The translations under genes and the position numbers were made by a program. The notes under the pieces were generated by a model. It saw only the letters and a program-made list of their open reading frames with translations. It was not told the DNA's origin and did no database searches. From Bryobacterales bacterium (GTDB lineage: Bacteria > Acidobacteriota > Terriglobia > Bryobacterales > Bryobacteraceae), in contig JBDIBK010000003.1 in assembly GCA_039812845.1 (NCBI GenBank), positions 1,054 through 65,053 of the forward strand: a DNA stretch of 64,000 bases. Direction: 5' to 3'. Below, piece after piece: positions 4,622 through 30,263 of this stretch; positions within the stretch are counted from its first letter, which is position 1; each line of letters starts with the position of its first letter.

Positions 4622-5545
4622 TTACTGAAATTTCCCGATTAAATCCCGCAGAACGGAAAATGCGGCGTCTTCGCCGTGTTCATACGGAATCTCCGCAGCC
4701 GGAGTGCCCTTCCCGGCCGGGCCAACCAGCCGCACGAGAGCGCCCCTTGGGGACCATACACGCGGGCTCTCCGGACCGAAGAACACGAGGCACGGGACGC
4801 CCAGGATGGCGGCCAGATGCGTGATTCCGGAATCGTTCCCAATAAAAAGGAACGCGCCGGCCAGCGCGCGGGCCAGATCGTCGAGGCGCTCGAATCGCCA
4901 GGCGCCGCGGACGAGGTCCTCCGGCAGGGCATCCTCCGGCCCGGCGCACCACTGGATGGAGATGCCGCCCTGGGCGAATGCGCCGATTGATTGGGCAAGC
5001 CGCCGGTACCGTTCCAGAGGCCAGTTCTTCCGCGCATTTCCCGAAAACGGGTGCATCACCACACGAAGCGGCGTACCGGGGGTGCCGCCCTCAGCCAGAG
5101 AAGGCAGCAGAAAGCGGCGGCCGCCCTCGCTGCACCATGCAGCCGGTTCCGCGCCAAGACCATGCCAGGCGCTCGTCTGGCACAGAAACCAGTCGCTCAC
5201 ATGGTGGGTTGAATCCCGATGGGGAAGAGCCTCAAAGAAGTGAATCGGCAACTGGAGACGTTCGCATTCCTCCCTCAACTCCGGCCGGTTTGCGCCGTGC
5301 CAGCTCAGAATTTCGTTGAAGCCCCGCAGCGTTTCCACCAAGCCAAGCGGGAGACGGGCACCGGGGATCCCCAGTAAGGAAAATCCTGTGGAAACCAGAT
5401 TCCGGCGGCGCGGCGCGAGTTCCATCAGCGGCAGCACCGGTCCGGGGGCCCATACTTCGGCCTCCTTCGGACCCATCGCGGCCAGCGTTGGCAGCCAGCA
5501 CAGGCAATCCCCGATTGCTCCGGGGCGGATGAAGAGGCGGCGCAT
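4622..5545 (-). CDS. Glycosyltransferase family 9 (ADP-heptose:LPS heptosyltransferase-like)
   Basis: N-terminus MRRLFIRPGAIGDCL, HPFSGNARKNWPLERY, and C-terminal IGNDSGITHLAAILGVPCLVFFGP are typical GT9 motifs. Confidence 0.8.
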   Translation of the reverse strand: MRRLFIRPGAIGDCLCWLPTLAAMGPKEAEVWAPGPVLPLMELAPRRRNLVSTGFSLLGIPGARLPLGLVETLRGFNEILSWHGANRPELREECERLQLPIHFFEALPHRDSTHHVSDWFLCQTSAWHGLGAEPAAWCSEGGRRFLLPSLAEGGTPGTPLRVVMHPFSGNARKNWPLERYRRLAQSIGAFAQGGISIQWCAGPEDALPEDLVRGAWRFERLDDLARALAGAFLFIGNDSGITHLAAILGVPCLVFFGPESPRVWSPRGALVRLVGPAGKGTPAAEIPYEHGEDAAFSVLRDLIGKFQ

Positions 5546-5560
5546 GGCGAGGGCGCTGGT

Positions 5561-6028
5561 CTAGCGGATGTCGTAGCTCAGGCGAACCGGCAGTGCCGCC
5601 GGGGGCAGGCATTCCTTATCGGTACAGGCCTGGTAATGGAGCTTTCCGGTGATGGCTCCGAAGCCCTGTGCAGTGGTTGCGGGCACCTTGAAATCCTGAT
5701 CGATGGTGAACGTCCCTTCGAGCACGGAAAGTTTGCCTTCCGAGAAGGGATAGCTGCGCAGGACCGCTTTCGGATAACGCGGCGTTTCGGGCGAAAGCGC
5801 ACCCTTCTCCCAGGAGAGACGCAGCGGCTTCAGATAGCGGTCTCCGGGTGTGGCGCTCGTGACATGGTAGCCCTTGGCAACGGTCACGGTCACGGGCACC
5901 GTAACCAGATCCCCTCGCTTGGCGGCAACCGGACCCTTCACGGCAACGCTGGCGACATTCGGTTTTGCGCCGGCCGCTGGGCTAATTTGCCCCGGCAGCC
6001 ACCATGCCCACAGGCAAAGGAGCGCCAT
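5561..6028 (-). CDS. DsbD N-terminal (DsbD-alpha/DsbC-like) domain protein, secreted
   Basis: C-terminal GKLHYQACTDKECLPPAALPVRL is the DsbD-alpha-type motif. Start placed at MALLCLWAWW (signal-like). The alternative upstream start at 6106 would deepen the overlap with the TlpA gene. Confidence 0.6.
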   Translation of the reverse strand: MALLCLWAWWLPGQISPAAGAKPNVASVAVKGPVAAKRGDLVTVPVTVTVAKGYHVTSATPGDRYLKPLRLSWEKGALSPETPRYPKAVLRSYPFSEGKLSVLEGTFTIDQDFKVPATTAQGFGAITGKLHYQACTDKECLPPAALPVRLSYDIR

Positions 6029-6614
6029 CAGCGCCCGCTGCCGCCGCTGTGGCCTTCGCTTCCAGTAATGCACGGATTTCCTCCTCAAACACTTTTCGGC
6101 TGACAATCCCCATGTGGACGCTGGCTACTTTGCCATTCCGGTCGAGGATATAGCTGGTGGGCAGCGCCTCCACTCCTCCGTAAAGTTGCGCCATCTCTTC
6201 GGTTCCCAGCACCATGCGGTAGTTCACCTTCATGTCCTGCATGAACGGCTTTACCGCCTTCCAGCCATCCTCGTCCATGGAGACGCCCACGACGGCGAAG
6301 CCCCGATCCTTGAACTCGCGCTCCATCTCGACGAACCAGGGAATCTCCACTTTGCAGGGCCCGCACCAGGTGGCCCAGAAGTTCAGCAGCACCACTTTGC
6401 CCCGGAGGTCGGAGAGCTTCAGGGTCTGCCCGTTGGCGTCTTCCAGCGCGAAGTCGGCCGCCTCATTCCGGGTATGCTCCGCCTTGAGTTTGGCCGTGGC
6501 CGCGGGTTCCTCCGTCTTCGTGCAGGAAAAGAGCCCGATTGCCAATACGGTTGCCATCAGGACTTTGAGCTTTCTCACGATGCCTCCTTTGCCCAGCGCT
6601 TCTCTCTCCGCCAC
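5982..6614 (-). CDS. TlpA/ResA-family thiol:disulfide oxidoreductase (lipoprotein-type signal)
   Basis: Thioredoxin motif FWATWCGPCKVEIP. N-terminal KLKVLMATVLAIGLFSC lipobox-like signal. The Ala/Gly-rich C-terminal tail overlaps the next gene. Confidence 0.85.
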   Translation of the reverse strand: MAEREALGKGGIVRKLKVLMATVLAIGLFSCTKTEEPAATAKLKAEHTRNEAADFALEDANGQTLKLSDLRGKVVLLNFWATWCGPCKVEIPWFVEMEREFKDRGFAVVGVSMDEDGWKAVKPFMQDMKVNYRMVLGTEEMAQLYGGVEALPTSYILDRNGKVASVHMGIVSRKVFEEEIRALLEAKATAAAAGADGAPLPVGMVAAGAN

Positions 6615-11782: not shown

Positions 11783-11970
11783 GCTCTTATTGCACATAGC
11801 CTGGTAATTGCCCGCCCCACCGGGCCATACACCCGCCCGCGGAGAGCCTCTCCGCAACGGCCAGACGACAACGTACACTGTGAAGAGTGCCCGGGTGGCA
11901 AGATCGGCGGACCCAACGGGCTTGAAAATCTGCCGGAGTCAGCCGCTCATTCGTGGTAACTTGAAACCGT

Positions 11971-12295
11971 GCGGGCGTGGCGAAATCGGCAGACGCAACG
12001 GACTTAAGCGAGAAACTTGAGTGCTCGCCGGGAAACCGGCGATGCAGAACTGCTCAAATTCGGGGAACCCTGTAGCATGGCGATCCCGAGCCAAGCCCGG
12101 CCCGAAACGGCTGGGAAGGTGTAGAGACTAGACGGGCAGCACCGGACACCCGAGGGTAGGATTCGGGTGCGGTGAAGGGATAGTCCAGACCCCAAACCCT
12201 GGCCGCACGGCCAGGGGCGGCGAAAGCCGTAGCCGGGTACGAAAATCCGTTTTTCCGCAAGGAGAGTGAGGGTTCAAGTCCCTCCGCCCGCACCA
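11971..12295 (+). tRNA. tRNA-Leu(UAA) gene interrupted by a group I intron (exons 11971-12005 and 12242-12295)
   Basis: Acceptor GCGGGCG/CGCCCGC, D-arm GCG-AAATCGGCAGA-CGC, and anticodon stem ACGGA/TCCGT. The spliced loop reads CTTAAAA (anticodon UAA). Long variable arm with a GCAA loop, T-arm GAGGG-TTCAAGT-CCCTC, discriminator A and encoded CCA. Spliced length is 89 nt. Confidence 0.9.
12006..12241 (+). ncRNA. Group I self-splicing intron (IC3-like) inserted between U34 and A35 of tRNA-Leu(UAA)
   Basis: P1: ACUU|AAG pairs with CUUGAGU (12016-12022), giving a U-G wobble at the 5' splice site. GAAA-capped hairpins lie at 12026-12041 and 12218-12229. R-like element GUAGAGACUAGACGG (12121-12135) and S-like GGGAUAGUCCAG (12177-12188) form P7 (GACUA/UAGUC). 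P9-like hairpin at 12197-12216. Terminal G at 12241. No ORF-coding capacity. Confidence 0.85.
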
Positions 12296-12594
12296 GGTTC
12301 ACCGTGGTCTTGCGCCGACGTCGAGATCGCTTCCATGATGCGGCAGTTCGCGATGAGCCCGTCGCCGCGGCAGCTCTCGCTGATACGCCGCAGTTCGTCG
12401 GCGAGCCGTGAAAGGTCCGAGACCTTCGCTTCGATGTCGGCCAAATGTTGCATCGTGATTCGGTTCACTTCGGAACATTCCTCGTTTTTCCGGGACGCCA
12501 GCCGCAGCAAGTCCCGCACCGGCTCAAGCGTGAAGCCCAGATCCCGGCAACGTCGAGTGAACCTTAGGCCGCATCGGCGTGGCACACCGTTCAT
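12274..12594 (-). pseudogene. MerR-family (CadR/ZntR/CueR-like) metal regulator remnant lacking the N-terminal HTH
   Basis: Retains the dimerisation helix and metal loop (LRFTRRCRDLGFTLEPVRDLLRL ... SCRGDGLIANC), but the roughly 50-aa HTH is absent. The 3' end reads into the tRNA-Leu 3' exon (12274-12295). Confidence 0.65.
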
Positions 12595-12963: not shown

Positions 12964-13326
12964 TCAGGCCCTCGCGCGGCTGCGCTTCCGACCGCTAGGG
13001 TTGTGTGGCGGCTCATCCTCGGCGATGCCGGACAGCACGACCGGCGCCCGGTCAGGGAATTTCGCGACGAGAGAGAGATTCCCGCCCATCGCTTCGACGG
13101 TTTTCCGCAATGTCGAAAGCAACAGATCGCTGCGCTTTTCGAGACGCGAGACGCTGTCCTGCTGGATGCCGAGCGCCTTGGCCAAGCGGACTTGGGTCAG
13201 CTTGCGCGCCTTGCGGAGCTCGCACAGGGTCATTTCCTCGGCTATCAGTTCCTTCGCGCGGGTCTCGACCATCTTGCGCCGGGCGGGGCTCAGCTTCCTG
13301 ATTTTGTCGTTCACATTCACAGGCAT
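12964..13326 (-). CDS. XRE-family HTH antitoxin (HigA-like)
   Basis: Start at MPVNVNDKIRK, 2 nt after the toxin stop. HTH_3 core MTLCELRKARKLTQVRLAKALGIQQDSVSRLEKR. Confidence 0.8.
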   Translation of the reverse strand: MPVNVNDKIRKLSPARRKMVETRAKELIAEEMTLCELRKARKLTQVRLAKALGIQQDSVSRLEKRSDLLLSTLRKTVEAMGGNLSLVAKFPDRAPVVLSGIAEDEPPHNPSGRKRSRARA

Positions 13327-13328
13327 GG

Positions 13329-13691
13329 CTACCTCCCTTCCTTTTTCAGCCGGGCGAGATGGGCTCCGAAACGCGCATCGGCCTTGCGGATCAGTTCCCG
13401 GTAAAAACGCGTCTCGCTGCCGCCCGACTTGTCGCCCGCCACGAGCAGGATCGCCCGGCGTTTCGCGTCGAATGCGAAAGCCACGCGCCATTCGCCGTTC
13501 GCCACGCTGAACCGCAGTTCCTTCATGCTCGCGTAACGCGACCCGTTCAACGTATCCACGCGGGGCCGGCCCAGTTGCGGCCCGAACTGCTGGAGCAGCC
13601 GCGACAAAGCCAGAATCTCCGTCTGCACATCCTCGTGCAGCGCGTCGAACTCCTGCTCGAACTCGTCGCCGATCTCAACAGCCCAGCTCAA
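13329..13691 (-). CDS. RelE/ParE-superfamily toxin (HigB/Gp49-like addiction module killer)
   Basis: 120 aa. ELRFSVANGEWRVAFAFDAKRRAILLVAGDKSG is the typical core of this toxin family. TTG start. Toxin-first order, as in higBA. Confidence 0.75.
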   Translation of the reverse strand: MSWAVEIGDEFEQEFDALHEDVQTEILALSRLLQQFGPQLGRPRVDTLNGSRYASMKELRFSVANGEWRVAFAFDAKRRAILLVAGDKSGGSETRFYRELIRKADARFGAHLARLKKEGR

Positions 13692-18678: not shown

Positions 18679-21600
18679 ATGGTTCCCCATTTCCTTCGTC
18701 TCGCTCCACGCCGGTATGGGCTGGCCATACTGGCTCTGCTGATGTTCTTCACGCTTCCGATGCGCGCACAGGAATACCGGGCTAAAGTGCAAGGCGTCGT
18801 GATGGATCCCAGCCAGGCGGCGGTGCCCGGGGCCAGGGTAACGCTCACCAACCGGAATACGGGAGTATCCGCCAGCGCGGAATCCGACGTGCAGGGCCGT
18901 TACAGTTTCGATCTCGTGACTCCCGGCGTCTATCAGCTTCAAGCGGAGGCCGACGGATTCGAGCCGTACGTGGTGAGCGATATCCAGGTTCAGGTACGGG
19001 CCGATATTACCATTGACCCCAAACTCCAGTTGCAAGGCACGGCCACCTCAGTCACCGTGACGGGCACAGCCACGGTCCTGACCCTCAATACGAGTTCGGT
19101 CGATATGACCATCAACCAGACCATGCTCAAGGAGTTGCCGGTGATGGCGCGCAACCCCTTCCAACTCGCGACGCTGGACCCTCTGGTGGTCAACAAGTAC
19201 ACCGGCGCTTACGCCTCCGCGAACGCCAACCCCTTCTTCATGTGGTCTTCGAGCACGATCGACGTGGGGGGCAGCAATGCGCGCCAGAACGATCTCTATG
19301 TGGACGGGACGCCGGTGCAGATCGGCCCCAAGGGTTCGTACACACCTCCCATGGATGCCGTGCAGGAGTTCAGCGTGCAGCAAAACAGCGTGGATGCCGA
19401 GTATGGGCACAGCGCGGGCGGCATTCTGAGCGTGGGCATGAAATCGGGAACGAACGAGTTCCACGGAACGGCGTACTATTTCGGCCGCAATCCTGCGCTG
19501 AACGCCGCGGTGAACTCGATCACGCACGAGACCAGCACGTCGCGCAACCACATCTGGGGCGGCACTCTGGGCAATCCGATTGTCCGGAACAAGCTCTTTG
19601 CATTCACTTCCTACGAACAGTGGAAGATGAATGAGCCGCTCAACAACCTCTTCACCCTGCCGACGGACCTCGAACGCACCGGTGACTTCTCAAAATCGCT
19701 GAATGCCATCGGCGGATTGCAGTTGATCTACGATCCCTGGTCCACCACCGTGAATCCGGTGACGGGCAGCGTCTATCGCGCACCCTTTGCGGGAAATATC
19801 ATCCCGTCCGGCAAACTGGATCCGACCGCGGTGCGGTTCATGCGGGACATCTGGAGCCCGAATAATCCGGGCGATTCCCTGATGGGCCTGCAGAACTTCA
19901 AGAAGACGTTCCCCATGCGGACCAAGTACATCAACTTCAGCGAGCGGGTGGATTGGAACCCCAGCGATTCCTGGCGCCTCTTTGGCCGCTTGAGCTTCGT
20001 GAATACCGACCTCGCACCCGAGAGGTATTCGGGCTCCGTGGCCCAGCGCGACGCGAACGGGGGCGTGATGGACAACCGCAACTTCGCGGCGGACGCCGTC
20101 TGGGTGAAAGATCCGCGCACCATCTTCAGCTTCCGCTTTGGGTATGCCAGTCTTTCAGACAACTATGCTTCCCCGCCCTCTGAAATCACGGAGCAGCAAC
20201 TGACGGAGTTCTGGCCGAACAACCCCTGGTACAAGCCCTATCTCAAGGACCTGCCCAAGCTGTACTATCCGGCACTCTATGTGGGTGACGCCGTTTTCGG
20301 CCAAGACCTCTACTGGCTGCAGACTCCCCGGCATTACAGCGGCCACGCCAGCGTGCGCCGCTCCCAAGGCTCGCACGACCTCAAGGCCGGGCTGGAAACG
20401 CGCTTCCATTTCGGAAAGGTTCACTTGCCGAATCTGATGGGCTTCGGATTCTCGCCCAACCCCACCGCGAACACGTTCCAGAATCCGAACTGGGGCCTGA
20501 CCGGAGATTCCTGGGCCACTTTCCTGGTGGGTGCGCCGGAAGCGGCCGCCGCTTCCTACATTGCCCCGCAGGACAACCGGGTCAACTTCTACAGTCTCTA
20601 CTTCCAGGACGACTTCAAGCTGGGCCGGCGCGTGACGCTGAATCTCGGATTGCGCTATGAGTACGAGACCGCGCCGCTCGATCCCGACAACCGCCTCACG
20701 CGTATGCTGGACCTCACGGATCCGATTCCGGAGATGCAGGCGAACGCTCCCCAGTTTCATCCGCTGGTGCAGCAGATGTTCGGGAAGCCGTTCACGTTCA
20801 ACGGAGCGTTCCATTTCACGGACAGCGATCACCCCCGCAAGTACGATGCGAACCCGCACGTGTTTCTGCCCAGGATCGGCGCGACCTTCCGCGTGAACGA
20901 CCGCACGTCGCTGCGAGCCGGGTGGGCGCGCTTCGTGGTTCCGCCTCTGGTGGTGAGCAAGACCATCACGGATGACCCCGGCTTCTATGGCTTCAGCCAG
21001 TCCACCTTCCTGCCGCCGGAGATTCTGGGCGTCCCCGGAGCGCCTCTGAACAAGCCGTTCCCCACGCTGCTCGACCCCCCCGGGAAGGCTTATGGGCGCT
21101 ACACCCAGCTTGGCGATTCCGTCACCTGGGACAGCCCGACGTTCCGGACCGGCGTGAACGACCGGCTGAATTTTTCATTCCAGCGTCTGCTTGGTTCCGG
21201 CATTCTCGCGGAAGCGAGCTATTTCCTGAACATTGGGCGAGGATTGCCCTACAACAAGAACTTCAACCTGATGGATCCGCAACTGCTTTACACCTACAAG
21301 GCCGCGGCGGAGCAGGGCGCGCCGAACCCATTCTTCGGCGCGTACCCGGTGGAGAAGTTTCCCGGCCTGTTGCGGAACTATCCCTACGTGCCGGCCACCT
21401 ACCAACTGCGCCCGTATCCGCAGTATCTCGACCTGATTCAGCGCAATACGCCAGGCATCGAGGACCGCTATCACGCGCTCTCCATCAGCTTGCGCAAACA
21501 GTTCAGCCAGGGCTACCAGTTCATGTGGAACTATGGCTACGTCCGGCAAAGAACGGGCGCGTTTTTCAACGATCTCGACGAGTACGCGGACCGCTTCACC

Positions 21601-22125
21601 ATGATGGAGAGCAGGGAGCCTCGCCACAGAACCTCTCTCGCCGCAACGGTCGATCTGCCCTTCGGCAAGGGCCGCAAGTTCGGGCCAACCATGCCTAAAG
21701 CGATGGAACTCCTGGCCGGAGGGTGGTCCGTGAGCCCGGTGTGGAAGTTCAGTTCAGGTGAGTATCTGCGCTTCGGGCCGGCGCTCGTCAGCGGAAACGA
21801 TCCGTCGATCGAGAATCCTGGACGAGAGCGTTACTTCGATACGAGCATGTTCCAACTGCTGCCGCCCTACACGCCAAGAACGAACCCGTGGCAATACGAC
21901 GGCGTCAAGGGATCTCCCAACTGGAACATCGATGTGAGCGTCGCCAAGTATTTTCCGTTGCACGAAGACATCCGCATCGAGCTTCGGATGGAAGCGTACA
22001 ACCTCACCAACAGCTTTATCCCGGGCCTGCCGGTGATGGATGTGGGGAACCCGCAGTTCGGCCGCTCCGTAACCCAGGCCAACCTGGGCCGCCAGATGCA
22101 GTATACATTGCGGCTGCACTTCTGA
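18679..22125 (+). CDS. TonB-dependent outer-membrane receptor with carboxypeptidase-regulatory-like domain
   Basis: Signal peptide, then YRAKVQGVVMDPSQAAVPGARVTLTNRNTG...GRYSFDLVTPGVYQLQAEADGFEP. Plug-like region and 1148-aa barrel ending YTLRLHF. Starts 5 nt after the TetR stop. Confidence 0.85.
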   Translation: MVPHFLRLAPRRYGLAILALLMFFTLPMRAQEYRAKVQGVVMDPSQAAVPGARVTLTNRNTGVSASAESDVQGRYSFDLVTPGVYQLQAEADGFEPYVVSDIQVQVRADITIDPKLQLQGTATSVTVTGTATVLTLNTSSVDMTINQTMLKELPVMARNPFQLATLDPLVVNKYTGAYASANANPFFMWSSSTIDVGGSNARQNDLYVDGTPVQIGPKGSYTPPMDAVQEFSVQQNSVDAEYGHSAGGILSVGMKSGTNEFHGTAYYFGRNPALNAAVNSITHETSTSRNHIWGGTLGNPIVRNKLFAFTSYEQWKMNEPLNNLFTLPTDLERTGDFSKSLNAIGGLQLIYDPWSTTVNPVTGSVYRAPFAGNIIPSGKLDPTAVRFMRDIWSPNNPGDSLMGLQNFKKTFPMRTKYINFSERVDWNPSDSWRLFGRLSFVNTDLAPERYSGSVAQRDANGGVMDNRNFAADAVWVKDPRTIFSFRFGYASLSDNYASPPSEITEQQLTEFWPNNPWYKPYLKDLPKLYYPALYVGDAVFGQDLYWLQTPRHYSGHASVRRSQGSHDLKAGLETRFHFGKVHLPNLMGFGFSPNPTANTFQNPNWGLTGDSWATFLVGAPEAAAASYIAPQDNRVNFYSLYFQDDFKLGRRVTLNLGLRYEYETAPLDPDNRLTRMLDLTDPIPEMQANAPQFHPLVQQMFGKPFTFNGAFHFTDSDHPRKYDANPHVFLPRIGATFRVNDRTSLRAGWARFVVPPLVVSKTITDDPGFYGFSQSTFLPPEILGVPGAPLNKPFPTLLDPPGKAYGRYTQLGDSVTWDSPTFRTGVNDRLNFSFQRLLGSGILAEASYFLNIGRGLPYNKNFNLMDPQLLYTYKAAAEQGAPNPFFGAYPVEKFPGLLRNYPYVPATYQLRPYPQYLDLIQRNTPGIEDRYHALSISLRKQFSQGYQFMWNYGYVRQRTGAFFNDLDEYADRFTMMESREPRHRTSLAATVDLPFGKGRKFGPTMPKAMELLAGGWSVSPVWKFSSGEYLRFGPALVSGNDPSIENPGRERYFDTSMFQLLPPYTPRTNPWQYDGVKGSPNWNIDVSVAKYFPLHEDIRIELRMEAYNLTNSFIPGLPVMDVGNPQFGRSVTQANLGRQMQYTLRLHF

Positions 22126-30186: not shown

Positions 30187-30263
30187 GGGGACGTAGTTCA
30201 GTTGGTTAGAACGCCTGCCTGTCACGCAGGAGGCCGCGGGTTCGAGCCCCGTCGTCCCCGCCA
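30187..30263 (+). tRNA. tRNA-Asp(GUC)
   Basis: GGGGACG/CGTCCCC acceptor, D-arm GTTC-AGTTGGTTA-GAAC, anticodon arm CCTGC-CTGTCAC-GCAGG (GTC), T-arm GCGGG-TTCGAGC-CCCGT, and encoded CCA. Confidence 0.95.

Follow-up and report, generated by a model that had tools for sequence, protein, structure and literature searches.

The stretch of DNA considered here, 64,000 nucleotides of contig JBDIBK010000003.1 and referred to below as the window, carries on its forward strand a tRNA-Leu(UAA) gene that is interrupted by what is, judged from its sequence, a group I intron of subgroup IC3. The 5' exon (11971-12005, 35 nt), delimited by ARAGORN in intron mode, holds the 5' strand of the acceptor stem, the D arm, the 5' strand of the anticodon stem and residues C32, U33 and U34, the wobble base U34 lying at 12005. 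The intron itself (12006-12241, 236 nt) was located by ARAGORN, by the Rfam model RF00028 and by a covariance model of the core, R1. The 3' exon (12242-12295, 54 nt), placed by ARAGORN together with an explicit helix model, begins with A35 and A36 and continues through the 3' strand of the anticodon stem, a long variable arm, the T arm and the 3' strand of the acceptor stem to a discriminator A and an encoded CCA at 12293-12295. With intron detection, ARAGORN reported tRNA-Leu(taa) i(36,236) at exactly 11971-12295 (+), and the joined exons (35 + 54 nt) were recognised by the same program as an 89-nt class II tRNA-Leu with the anticodon UAA, a long variable arm and the encoded CCA. The splice-site context is ...GGACUU|AAGCG...GGUACG|AAAAUCCG, with U at position -1, G at the terminal (omega) position of the intron and insertion between U34 and A35; the arrangement CUU/intron/AAAA, by which the insertion type Leu.3Ug is recognised, is present in the window. 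The original prediction had joined the same two exons into an 89-nt class II tRNA-Leu(UAA), had put a 236-nt insert exactly between U34 and A35 and had proposed intron-aware ARAGORN as a check, and in each of these respects it was confirmed.

The gene is easily overlooked. Default ARAGORN applied to the whole window returned a tRNA-Asp at 30187 alone and missed the split tRNA-Leu, and Rfam at its gathering threshold reported nothing at the intron locus, the tRNA-Asp again being the only hit in the 64-kb window. The earlier warning that automated finders might miss this gene has proved justified. A sensitive search of 11900-12400 with RF00028 (Intron_gpI) aligned the full model (1-253) to 11996-12202 with 46.5 bits and E=8.6e-11. 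Further evidence for the identity of the intron came from model R1, which describes the P3-to-P7 core and was built from 24 cyanobacterial-type sequences only. It gave a single match in the 64-kb window, at 12048-12188 (+), which spans the full model with 79.3 bits (E~3.5e-20 on a rough calibration) and places the window intron in the IC3 tRNA-intron family, at the classical Leu.3Ug site. The cyanobacterial-type set consists of 56 metagenome contigs recovered with the core GCAGAGACUCGACGG, 49 of which carry a tRNA-Leu(taa) split at the same site. It is so called because the documented cyanobacterial seed Sel1.Leu.3Ug clusters with it and because its members are presumably 86-94% identical to the intron of Anabaena PCC 7120. 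A labelled cyanobacterial record of the intron was sought in the plasmid collection and no match was found there.

The explicit helix model was written on the window sequence, in which all its pairs are standard; the coordinates that follow all refer to the forward strand. P1 (12003-12008 / 12016-12021) pairs exon CUU and intron AAG with CUUGAG, where the Rfam alignment also places it, and is extended by A12002-U12022. The wobble pair U12005·G12019 defines the 5' splice site, as had been read from ACUU|AAG and CUUGAGU at 12016-12022. P2 (12025-12042) is a hairpin of 7 bp with a GAAA tetraloop at 12032-12035. The 5' strand of P3 (CUGCUC, 12050-12055) has its partner in GGGCAG at 12134-12139. 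P4 (12060-12065 / 12084-12089) encloses a loop and a short P5 (12068-12069 / 12079-12080), the latter also drawn in the consensus structure curated by Williams (2020). An outer P6, GCC at 12090-12092 with GGU at 12118-12120, is taken from that consensus (gpI.sto) and is legible in the sequence, and P6a (12096-12102 / 12109-12115) has the loop CGAAAC. The 5' strand of P7 consists of G12124, a bulged A12125 and GACUA (12126-12130), and its 3' strand is UAGUCC (12181-12186), of which UAGUC at 12181-12185 pairs with GACUA; this is the expected guanosine-binding helix and it forms a pseudoknot with P3. P8 is a hairpin at 12140-12174 with a proximal part (12140-12143 / 12171-12174) and a distal part (12147-12153 / 12163-12169). 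The P9 domain (12189-12238) has a stem at 12189-12192 / 12235-12238 that encloses P9a (12197-12216) and P9b (12217-12230), the latter with a GAAA loop at 12222-12225. The omega-G, G12241, stands directly before the 3' splice site G|AAAAUCC. The two GAAA-capped hairpins, the P7 pairing GACUA/UAGUC, the P9 hairpin and the 3'-terminal G that had been picked out by eye are all accounted for in this model.

The locus therefore offers what is looked for in a group I intron, namely the core helices P3-P8 with the P3/P7 pseudoknot and comparative backing, a U·G wobble in P1 and a terminal guanosine. A column-wise comparison against the IC3 seed alignment shows that it also has the IC3 architecture: P5abc is lacking, P5 is short, P2 is present and P9 contains an internal GNRA hairpin. 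The helices are the same set as in the curated consensus of Williams (2020), which adds the outer P6, and the proposed fold against the IC3 model came out in favour of the prediction. The core strings CAAAUUCGGGGAACCC, GAUCCCGAGCCAAGCC, GGAAGGUGUAGAGACUAGACGGG and GCGAAAGC had been likened to those of the cyanobacterial and plastid intron. All four are found in the window and the assignments to IC3 and to the insertion site are right, but the specific match to the cyanobacterial/plastid lineage fails on the core distances discussed below. No sense-strand open reading frame (ORF) of 80 aa or more overlaps the intron, so a homing endonuclease gene is absent from its 236 nt; the one ORF that overlaps it runs antisense at 12054-12302, a mechanical frame of 82 aa. 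A terminator-like site at 12234-12249, over the 3' splice junction, was dismissed as a chance match, being built of the anticodon stem and the U-run of the variable arm.

Comparative data were obtained by scanning species-representative genomes with the window's own variant of P5/P6 and J6/7-P7, which gave at least 120 matches. ARAGORN in intron mode called 89 of the matches listed as tRNA-Leu(taa) with the intron at the same position, and these were aligned with the window by MAFFT (alignment A1, n=90). Two further matches, one of two called Ile(tat) (L153) and one of eight called Phe(gaa) (L179), are mis-called copies of the split tRNA-Leu(UAA), which brings the verified genes with an intron at this site to at least 91, or about 99 if the remaining eight such calls are also mis-calls. 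In a noticeable fraction of cases the long-intron mode of ARAGORN puts the anticodon or the splice site in the wrong place (L153, L179 and a plasmid copy, L241, are really split tRNA-Leu(UAA)), and isotype labels from this mode therefore need a manual check.

In A1, 90.4% of helix cells pair, a figure that drops to 34-46% if the 3' partners are shifted by 1-3 columns, and both sides of the pair have changed in 61 of 93 pairs; the observed values were reached by none of 500 shuffles. The splice-site U·G (columns 35/55) is present in 90/90 sequences and the neighbouring P1 pairs covary, as do the helices of the tRNA cloverleaf, variable arm and T arm included. Both-side changes are seen in all seven pairs of P2. 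P3 is paired in 99.8% of cells, with UA:61 / CG:28 and GC:80 / CG:6 at two of its positions, and P4 in 100%, mostly without variation. Five of the seven P6a pairs and three of the four proximal P8 pairs covary (99.7% of cells paired in the latter), and P9, P9a and P9b all covary. Two column sets are uninformative: P5, where MAFFT misalignment leaves 56.7% of cells paired, and distal P8 (44%), which is length-variable and misaligned. The omega-G column (G271 of the pre-tRNA) is invariant. P7 is invariant in A1 in its 5' strand because this was fixed by the genome search pattern. In a separate set of viral contigs, collected with one position of P7 left free, P7 was seen as GACUA/UAGUC in 64 cases, GACUU/AAGUC in 46 and GACUG/CAGUC in one, with no mismatched combinations.

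The window locus is probably an ordinary Leu.3Ug intron of subgroup IC3 in a functional acidobacterial tRNA gene. The RNA anatomy of the intron, its conservation and its family membership are documented directly by the comparisons above; catalysis is expected by analogy with the IC3 pre-tRNA introns of Anabaena tRNA-Leu and Azoarcus tRNA-Ile. On that analogy the gene would be transcribed as a 325-nt precursor, in which the intron would fold into its P1-P9 core. A free guanosine bound in P7 would attack the phosphate that follows U12005, a residue held in P1 by its U·G wobble, and the omega-G, G12241, would then replace this guanosine in the binding site. The freed 3'-OH of U34 would attack the 3' splice site, and the ligated exons would form the mature 89-nt tRNA. 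The window makes rare use of UUA codons (16 among about 14,200 codons, and 16 of 1,443 leucine codons, in long ORFs with high GC content at third codon positions), and the genome therefore needs a tRNA-Leu with U34.

This rarity of UUA codons can also be read as low demand for tRNA-Leu(UAA), as would be expected if the window copy were a splicing-dead relic, a pseudogene whose role is served by another, intact tRNA-Leu(UAA) elsewhere, and the confinement of our view to 64 kb leaves room for such a gene. Two results count against an intact gene. A simple sigma-70 scan at the locus gave no promoter, and the RF00028 score of 46.5 bits lies slightly under the curated gathering cut-off of 50 bits, so that the proposed Rfam check succeeded in its E-value over the full model and fell short in its score. 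A sub-threshold score is expected for this intron, because the RF00028 seed held no bacterial sequences according to Williams (2020) and a tRNA-Leu core model gives 79 bits. The core helices, the U·G pair, P7 with its bulged A and the omega-G are all intact, the changes relative to related introns are compensatory rather than disruptive, and the exons form a canonical tRNA with an encoded CCA. Conservation with the nearest relative, L122, moreover takes in about 83 nt upstream of the gene. A relic of this kind is thus improbable.

About 30 of the matches listed belong to Acidobacteriota and the remainder mostly to Pseudomonadota, and none of the 120 matches listed is in a genome labelled as a cyanobacterium. 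Among them this intron type was found at this site in Acidobacteriota, in Alpha-, Beta- and Gammaproteobacteria and in Binatia, and related cores occur in other tRNAs, Arg-CCU and Thr-GGU. The premise that the intron is only sporadic outside cyanobacteria and plastids has to be given up in view of at least 120 genomes with the window's core variant, at least 91 of them at the same tRNA-Leu(UAA) site. It is also countered by the survey of Williams (2020), in which Leu.3Ug is a classical type with a non-cyanobacterial seed 79% identical to the window intron. The picture that emerges from these sequences is of a Leu.3Ug intron that is common in bacteria other than cyanobacteria and follows the lineages of its hosts.

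When whole pre-tRNAs were compared, the nearest relatives of the window locus among the matches listed were all metagenome-assembled genomes (MAGs) of Acidobacteriota: an Acidobacteriaceae MAG (L122, 89% identity), a Terriglobia MAG (L199, 88.5%), an Acidobacteriota MAG (L141, 87%) and two Bryobacterales MAGs (L148, 86%; L171, 83%). These relatives point to an acidobacterial host and, together with a GC content of 61.9%, agree with the earlier view that the host is not a cyanobacterium. Of the protein-coding frames in the window, an ORF at 18679-22125 had no match on record, and one at 1572-2732, whose protein cluster has no named members, was found only in the Logan assemblies SRR19427039, SRR25569717 and SRR19427028. 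The distances between intron cores are in line with this. Among the matches listed the acidobacterial Leu introns lie at 0.07-0.21 from the window, followed by Binatia Leu (~0.13), gammaproteobacterial Leu (median 0.20), alphaproteobacterial Leu (median 0.24), tRNA-Arg(CCU) (0.28-0.33), Burkholderia-group Leu (~0.31), viral Leu (0.30-0.45, median 0.35), cyanobacterial-type Leu (0.36-0.43) and the fMet and Ile2 seeds (0.39-0.42). Neighbour joining places the window in a clade of 22 Acidobacteriota and one Binatia, so that 22 of the 25 acidobacterial introns among the matches listed stand with it, and pure clades are formed by the cyanobacterial type (41/41) and the Burkholderia group (6/6). Distances between exons are correlated with those between introns (Mantel r=0.73, reached in 0 of 999 permutations). 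From the core distances, the clade placement and the exon/intron coupling we infer that descent of the intron locus in its host lineage has been mainly vertical. The phylogenetic placement that had been proposed as a check accordingly put the intron in the Leu.3Ug family, but grouped it with Acidobacteriota and left the cyanobacterial type in a separate clade.

The same observations bear on the idea that the intron reached the window genome by recent transfer from a cyanobacterium or plastid. The insertion site, the subgroup and many core strings are common to both. Of the tRNA-Leu groups, however, the cyanobacterial type lies farthest from the window and forms a pure clade of its own, and tRNA-Leu introns of other phyla, and even those of tRNA-Arg(CCU), are closer (0.28-0.33 for the latter against 0.36-0.43), which speaks against orthology with the cyanobacterial/plastid introns in particular. 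The cyanobacterial seed Sel1.Leu.3Ug is 62% identical to the window intron over all aligned columns, against 79% for the non-cyanobacterial Ncf2.Leu.3Ug, and both exons and intron of the window resemble those of other Acidobacteriota. A recent cyanobacterial transfer is unlikely on these grounds, to the point of being scarcely credible.

A more serious alternative is that the intron or the whole tRNA-Leu locus was acquired horizontally, from Pseudomonadota or from phage-borne tRNA genes, by a family that is mobile across phyla. The same intron type occupies the same site in Acidobacteriota, three proteobacterial classes and Binatia, and one Binatia, a few Alphaproteobacteria and one gammaproteobacterium fall inside or beside the acidobacterial clade. 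Intron-split tRNA-Leu(UAA) genes occur in the tRNA clusters of many IMG/VR viral contigs, one copy of the intron is found on more than 1,200 resistance plasmids, and the close cores in Arg-CCU and Thr-GGU tRNAs suggest past transposition between sites. Vertical descent is further weakened by the nature of the data: the alignment has about 200 columns, the neighbour-joining tree is without bootstrap, and the sample of at least 120 matches was picked with the window's own core motif and is biased to close relatives. Nor did the surroundings of the gene lend support, as blastn with window positions 4-20 kb found, in the seven nearest loci, the tRNA gene only, plus about 83 nt upstream in L122, and tblastn of seven flanking ORFs against the 120 genome loci listed gave no matches. 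With no flanking synteny detected, gene context is therefore unusable as an argument for vertical inheritance. Acquisition from outside the lineage is difficult to reconcile with the single clade that unites 22 of 25 acidobacterial introns with the window, with the coupled divergence of exons and intron (r=0.73), with the distance of viral Leu introns from the window (0.30-0.45) and with the absence of a homing endonuclease gene from the 236-nt intron. It is, on balance, an unlikely history. The explanation to be preferred, and in our view a very likely one, is that the window holds an intact tRNA-Leu(UAA) of an acidobacterial (Terriglobia-like) genome, split by a 236-nt, ORF-less IC3 intron of the Leu.3Ug type that would be self-splicing and mainly vertically inherited.

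A wider proposition may be put forward tentatively, as something we think rather doubtful: the tRNA-Leu(UAA) intron at U34/A35 may be an old resident of several bacterial lineages (Terriglobia, many Alphaproteobacteria, the Burkholderia group and Binatia) that has co-diverged with its host tRNA, rather than a sporadic leak from cyanobacteria. If this were so, one version would be that the insertion took place before the phyla diverged, and the age of the 'oldest known intron' would then be even greater; the other would be that the site was invaded more than once, by way of phage tRNA clusters and plasmids. The host-tracking clades, the exon/intron coupling, the abundant viral copies and the plasmid copy fit either version. 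The single locus described here adds little on evolution, the wider distribution of Leu.3Ug being the more informative.

The plasmid copy is a complete-looking, unannotated tRNA-Leu(UAA) with an IC3 intron of about 222 nt that is present on 1,279 PLSDB plasmid records, 926 of them predicted to be conjugative, from E. coli, Klebsiella, Salmonella, Acinetobacter and other hosts. Two copies were examined, L241:4001-4299 (pCTX-M3, NC_004464.2 61823-62121) and L242:4001-4298 (Acinetobacter pBDT2044-7). Their P7 is GACUG/CAGUC, a compensated change, and the label tRNA-Stop(tta) given by ARAGORN is wrong. In the two plasmids the gene adjoins an 'AAA family ATPase' gene, which we take to be tmrB-like, and aac(3)-IId, and copies of IS26 lie in the region. 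Among the matches listed the plasmid intron is closest to that of a Stellaceae (alphaproteobacterial) MAG (L123, core distance 0.089), a likeness that hints at a chromosomal donor of the aac(3)-IId resistance region, and the plasmid tRNA-Leu may help to trace the donor of this gentamicin-resistance module. A literature search found no paper tying tmrB or gentamicin resistance to a tRNA group I intron. The same plasmid and Stellaceae type recurs in a 'Proteobacteria bacterium' MAG (L127, SZAS LIN-13) that carries two split tRNA-Leu(UAA) genes about 500 bp apart on opposite strands, at 5517-5826 (+) and ~6000-6300 (-). They are of differing subtypes, ...CUU|AGGCAAAUUGUUUGAG and ...CUU|CAAUUGGAG, the latter being the Stellaceae and plasmid type, and the pair may have arisen by true duplication or by acquisition, unless the contig is a chimera of the assembly.

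Among viruses, the IC3 core motif AAGGUGYAGAGACUNGACGG was found on at least 120 IMG/VR contigs (L001-L120), which may be phage or misclassified cellular DNA. About 60 of the viral contigs listed carry a split tRNA-Leu(UAA), often in clusters beside Ile(UAU), Met(CAU) and Arg(UCU), and on others the same core lies in tRNAs for Arg, Lys, Met, Pro, Gln, Thr and Ser. A viral 'tRNA-Stop(tta)' (L007) may be the same ARAGORN artefact as on the plasmids rather than a suppressor tRNA. According to a 2014 review, the group I introns then known from phages were all in protein-coding genes, and a search of GenBank phages for the intron gave weak partial matches only. A related intron also splits a tRNA-Leu(CAA) at the same position in an Acidobacteriota MAG (MFD10064.bin.2.95; L225:~3730, + strand). 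It has C at -1 (GGACUC|AGACC...), which would give C:G in P1 instead of U·G. A 'Leu.3Cg' type with 72 cases, from Proteobacteria only and with putative splicing, is listed by Williams (2020).

Two features lie close to the 3' end of the window gene. An ORF of 106 aa at 12274-12594 (-), which overlaps the tRNA gene by 22 nt on the opposite strand, resembles by eye the C-terminal two thirds of a MerR-family regulator (motif ...FTRRCRDLGFTLEPVRDLLRL...); the N-terminal helix-turn-helix is apparently missing, and the ORF could be either a gene that has been truncated or a merely mechanical frame. Two small ORFs at 12964-13691 (-), some 0.7 kb downstream of the tRNA, resemble by eye a HigB-type toxin (13329-13691) followed by a putative XRE/HigA-type antitoxin whose ORF has an internal start near 13323 and ends at 12964. 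Toxin-antitoxin pairs beside tRNA genes are frequent markers of integrated elements.

The main practical value of the locus is the correction of annotation. Because default tRNA finders and the Rfam threshold both miss the gene, the genome would seem under default annotation to be without the only UUA-reading tRNA, though UUA codons are used. The same gap probably affects many assemblies of Acidobacteriota and Pseudomonadota.

The distribution of group I introns among the tRNA genes of bacteria was surveyed by Williams (bioRxiv 2020, doi 10.1101/2020.01.27.920355), who reported 5,292 split tRNA genes in 80,413 genomes. In this preprint Leu.3Ug is one of four classical IC3 types, counts are tabulated by phylum and the Intron_gpI seed used is stated to have held no bacterial sequences. 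Calls were made there when a split tRNA reported by ARAGORN contained an Intron_gpI match above a threshold of about 20 bits, after which a U at -1 and a G at omega were scored, and on these rules the window intron would have been called. The intron type and site are therefore already catalogued and what is new here is this copy. Reviews from 2014 and 2024 describe the tRNA group I introns of bacteria as cyanobacterial together with some alpha- and betaproteobacterial cases, that of tRNA-Leu(UAA) being cyanobacterial/plastid, and our literature search found no paper naming Acidobacteria for a tRNA-Leu intron, the by-phylum counts of Williams (2020) lying outside the comparison.

The closest known system is the seed Ncf2.Leu.3Ug of Williams (2020). 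It lies in the same tRNA-Leu(UAA) gene with the splice sites CUU/a...g/AAAA and shares with the window intron the helix plan of P1, P2 with GAAA, P3-P8 and P9 with the GCGAAAGC hairpin, as well as P7 in the form GUAGAGACUA / GAUAGUCC. The two are 79% identical when all aligned columns are counted and 91% identical when only ungapped columns are. Ncf2 is alphaproteobacterial, its nearest sequences in the comparison set being from Novosphingobium and Sphingomonas, whereas the window is acidobacterial, and the two introns are unlike in the length and sequence of the P1 loop, P6a, distal P8 and P9a. Vepritskiy and colleagues are reported to have described an intron in a gammaproteobacterial tRNA-Leu(UAA) in the Journal of Bacteriology in 2002.

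The intron of cyanobacterial and plastid tRNA-Leu(UAA) (Kuhsel et al., 1990, as cited in a review) has the identical U34/A35 insertion site and IC3 architecture and shares with the window the core strings of J3/4-P4, P4'-P6, J6/7-P7 and the P9 GCGAAAGC hairpin. At a core distance of 0.36-0.43, however, the cyanobacterial type is no closer to the window than are introns of other tRNAs. The cyanobacterial-type metagenome set (GCAGAGACUC pattern) has P7 as GACUC/GAGUC and AU-rich peripheral helices, the seed Sel1 having GACUA, and the exons of its host tRNAs form a GGGGG...CCCCCA acceptor stem unlike that of the window. The alphaproteobacterial tRNA-Arg(CCU) intron (Agrobacterium; 'Arg.5Ug'; Reinhold-Hurek and Shub, 1992) also shares the IC3 core, the seed Rur1.Arg.5Ug being 69% identical over all columns, and at 0.28-0.33 these introns are closer to the window than the cyanobacterial Leu introns, but they differ in host tRNA, in position within the anticodon loop and in a P1 fitted to another exon. 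Finally, the Azoarcus tRNA-Ile(CAU) intron ('Ile2.5Ug'), a structurally solved IC3 ribozyme, has the same subgroup and fold plan as the window intron, from which it differs by a core distance of 0.42, a shorter and simpler P9, and another tRNA and site. It is this intron that, according to a review, provides the mechanistic model of two-metal-ion, guanosine-initiated pre-tRNA splicing, for which cryo-EM work also exists.

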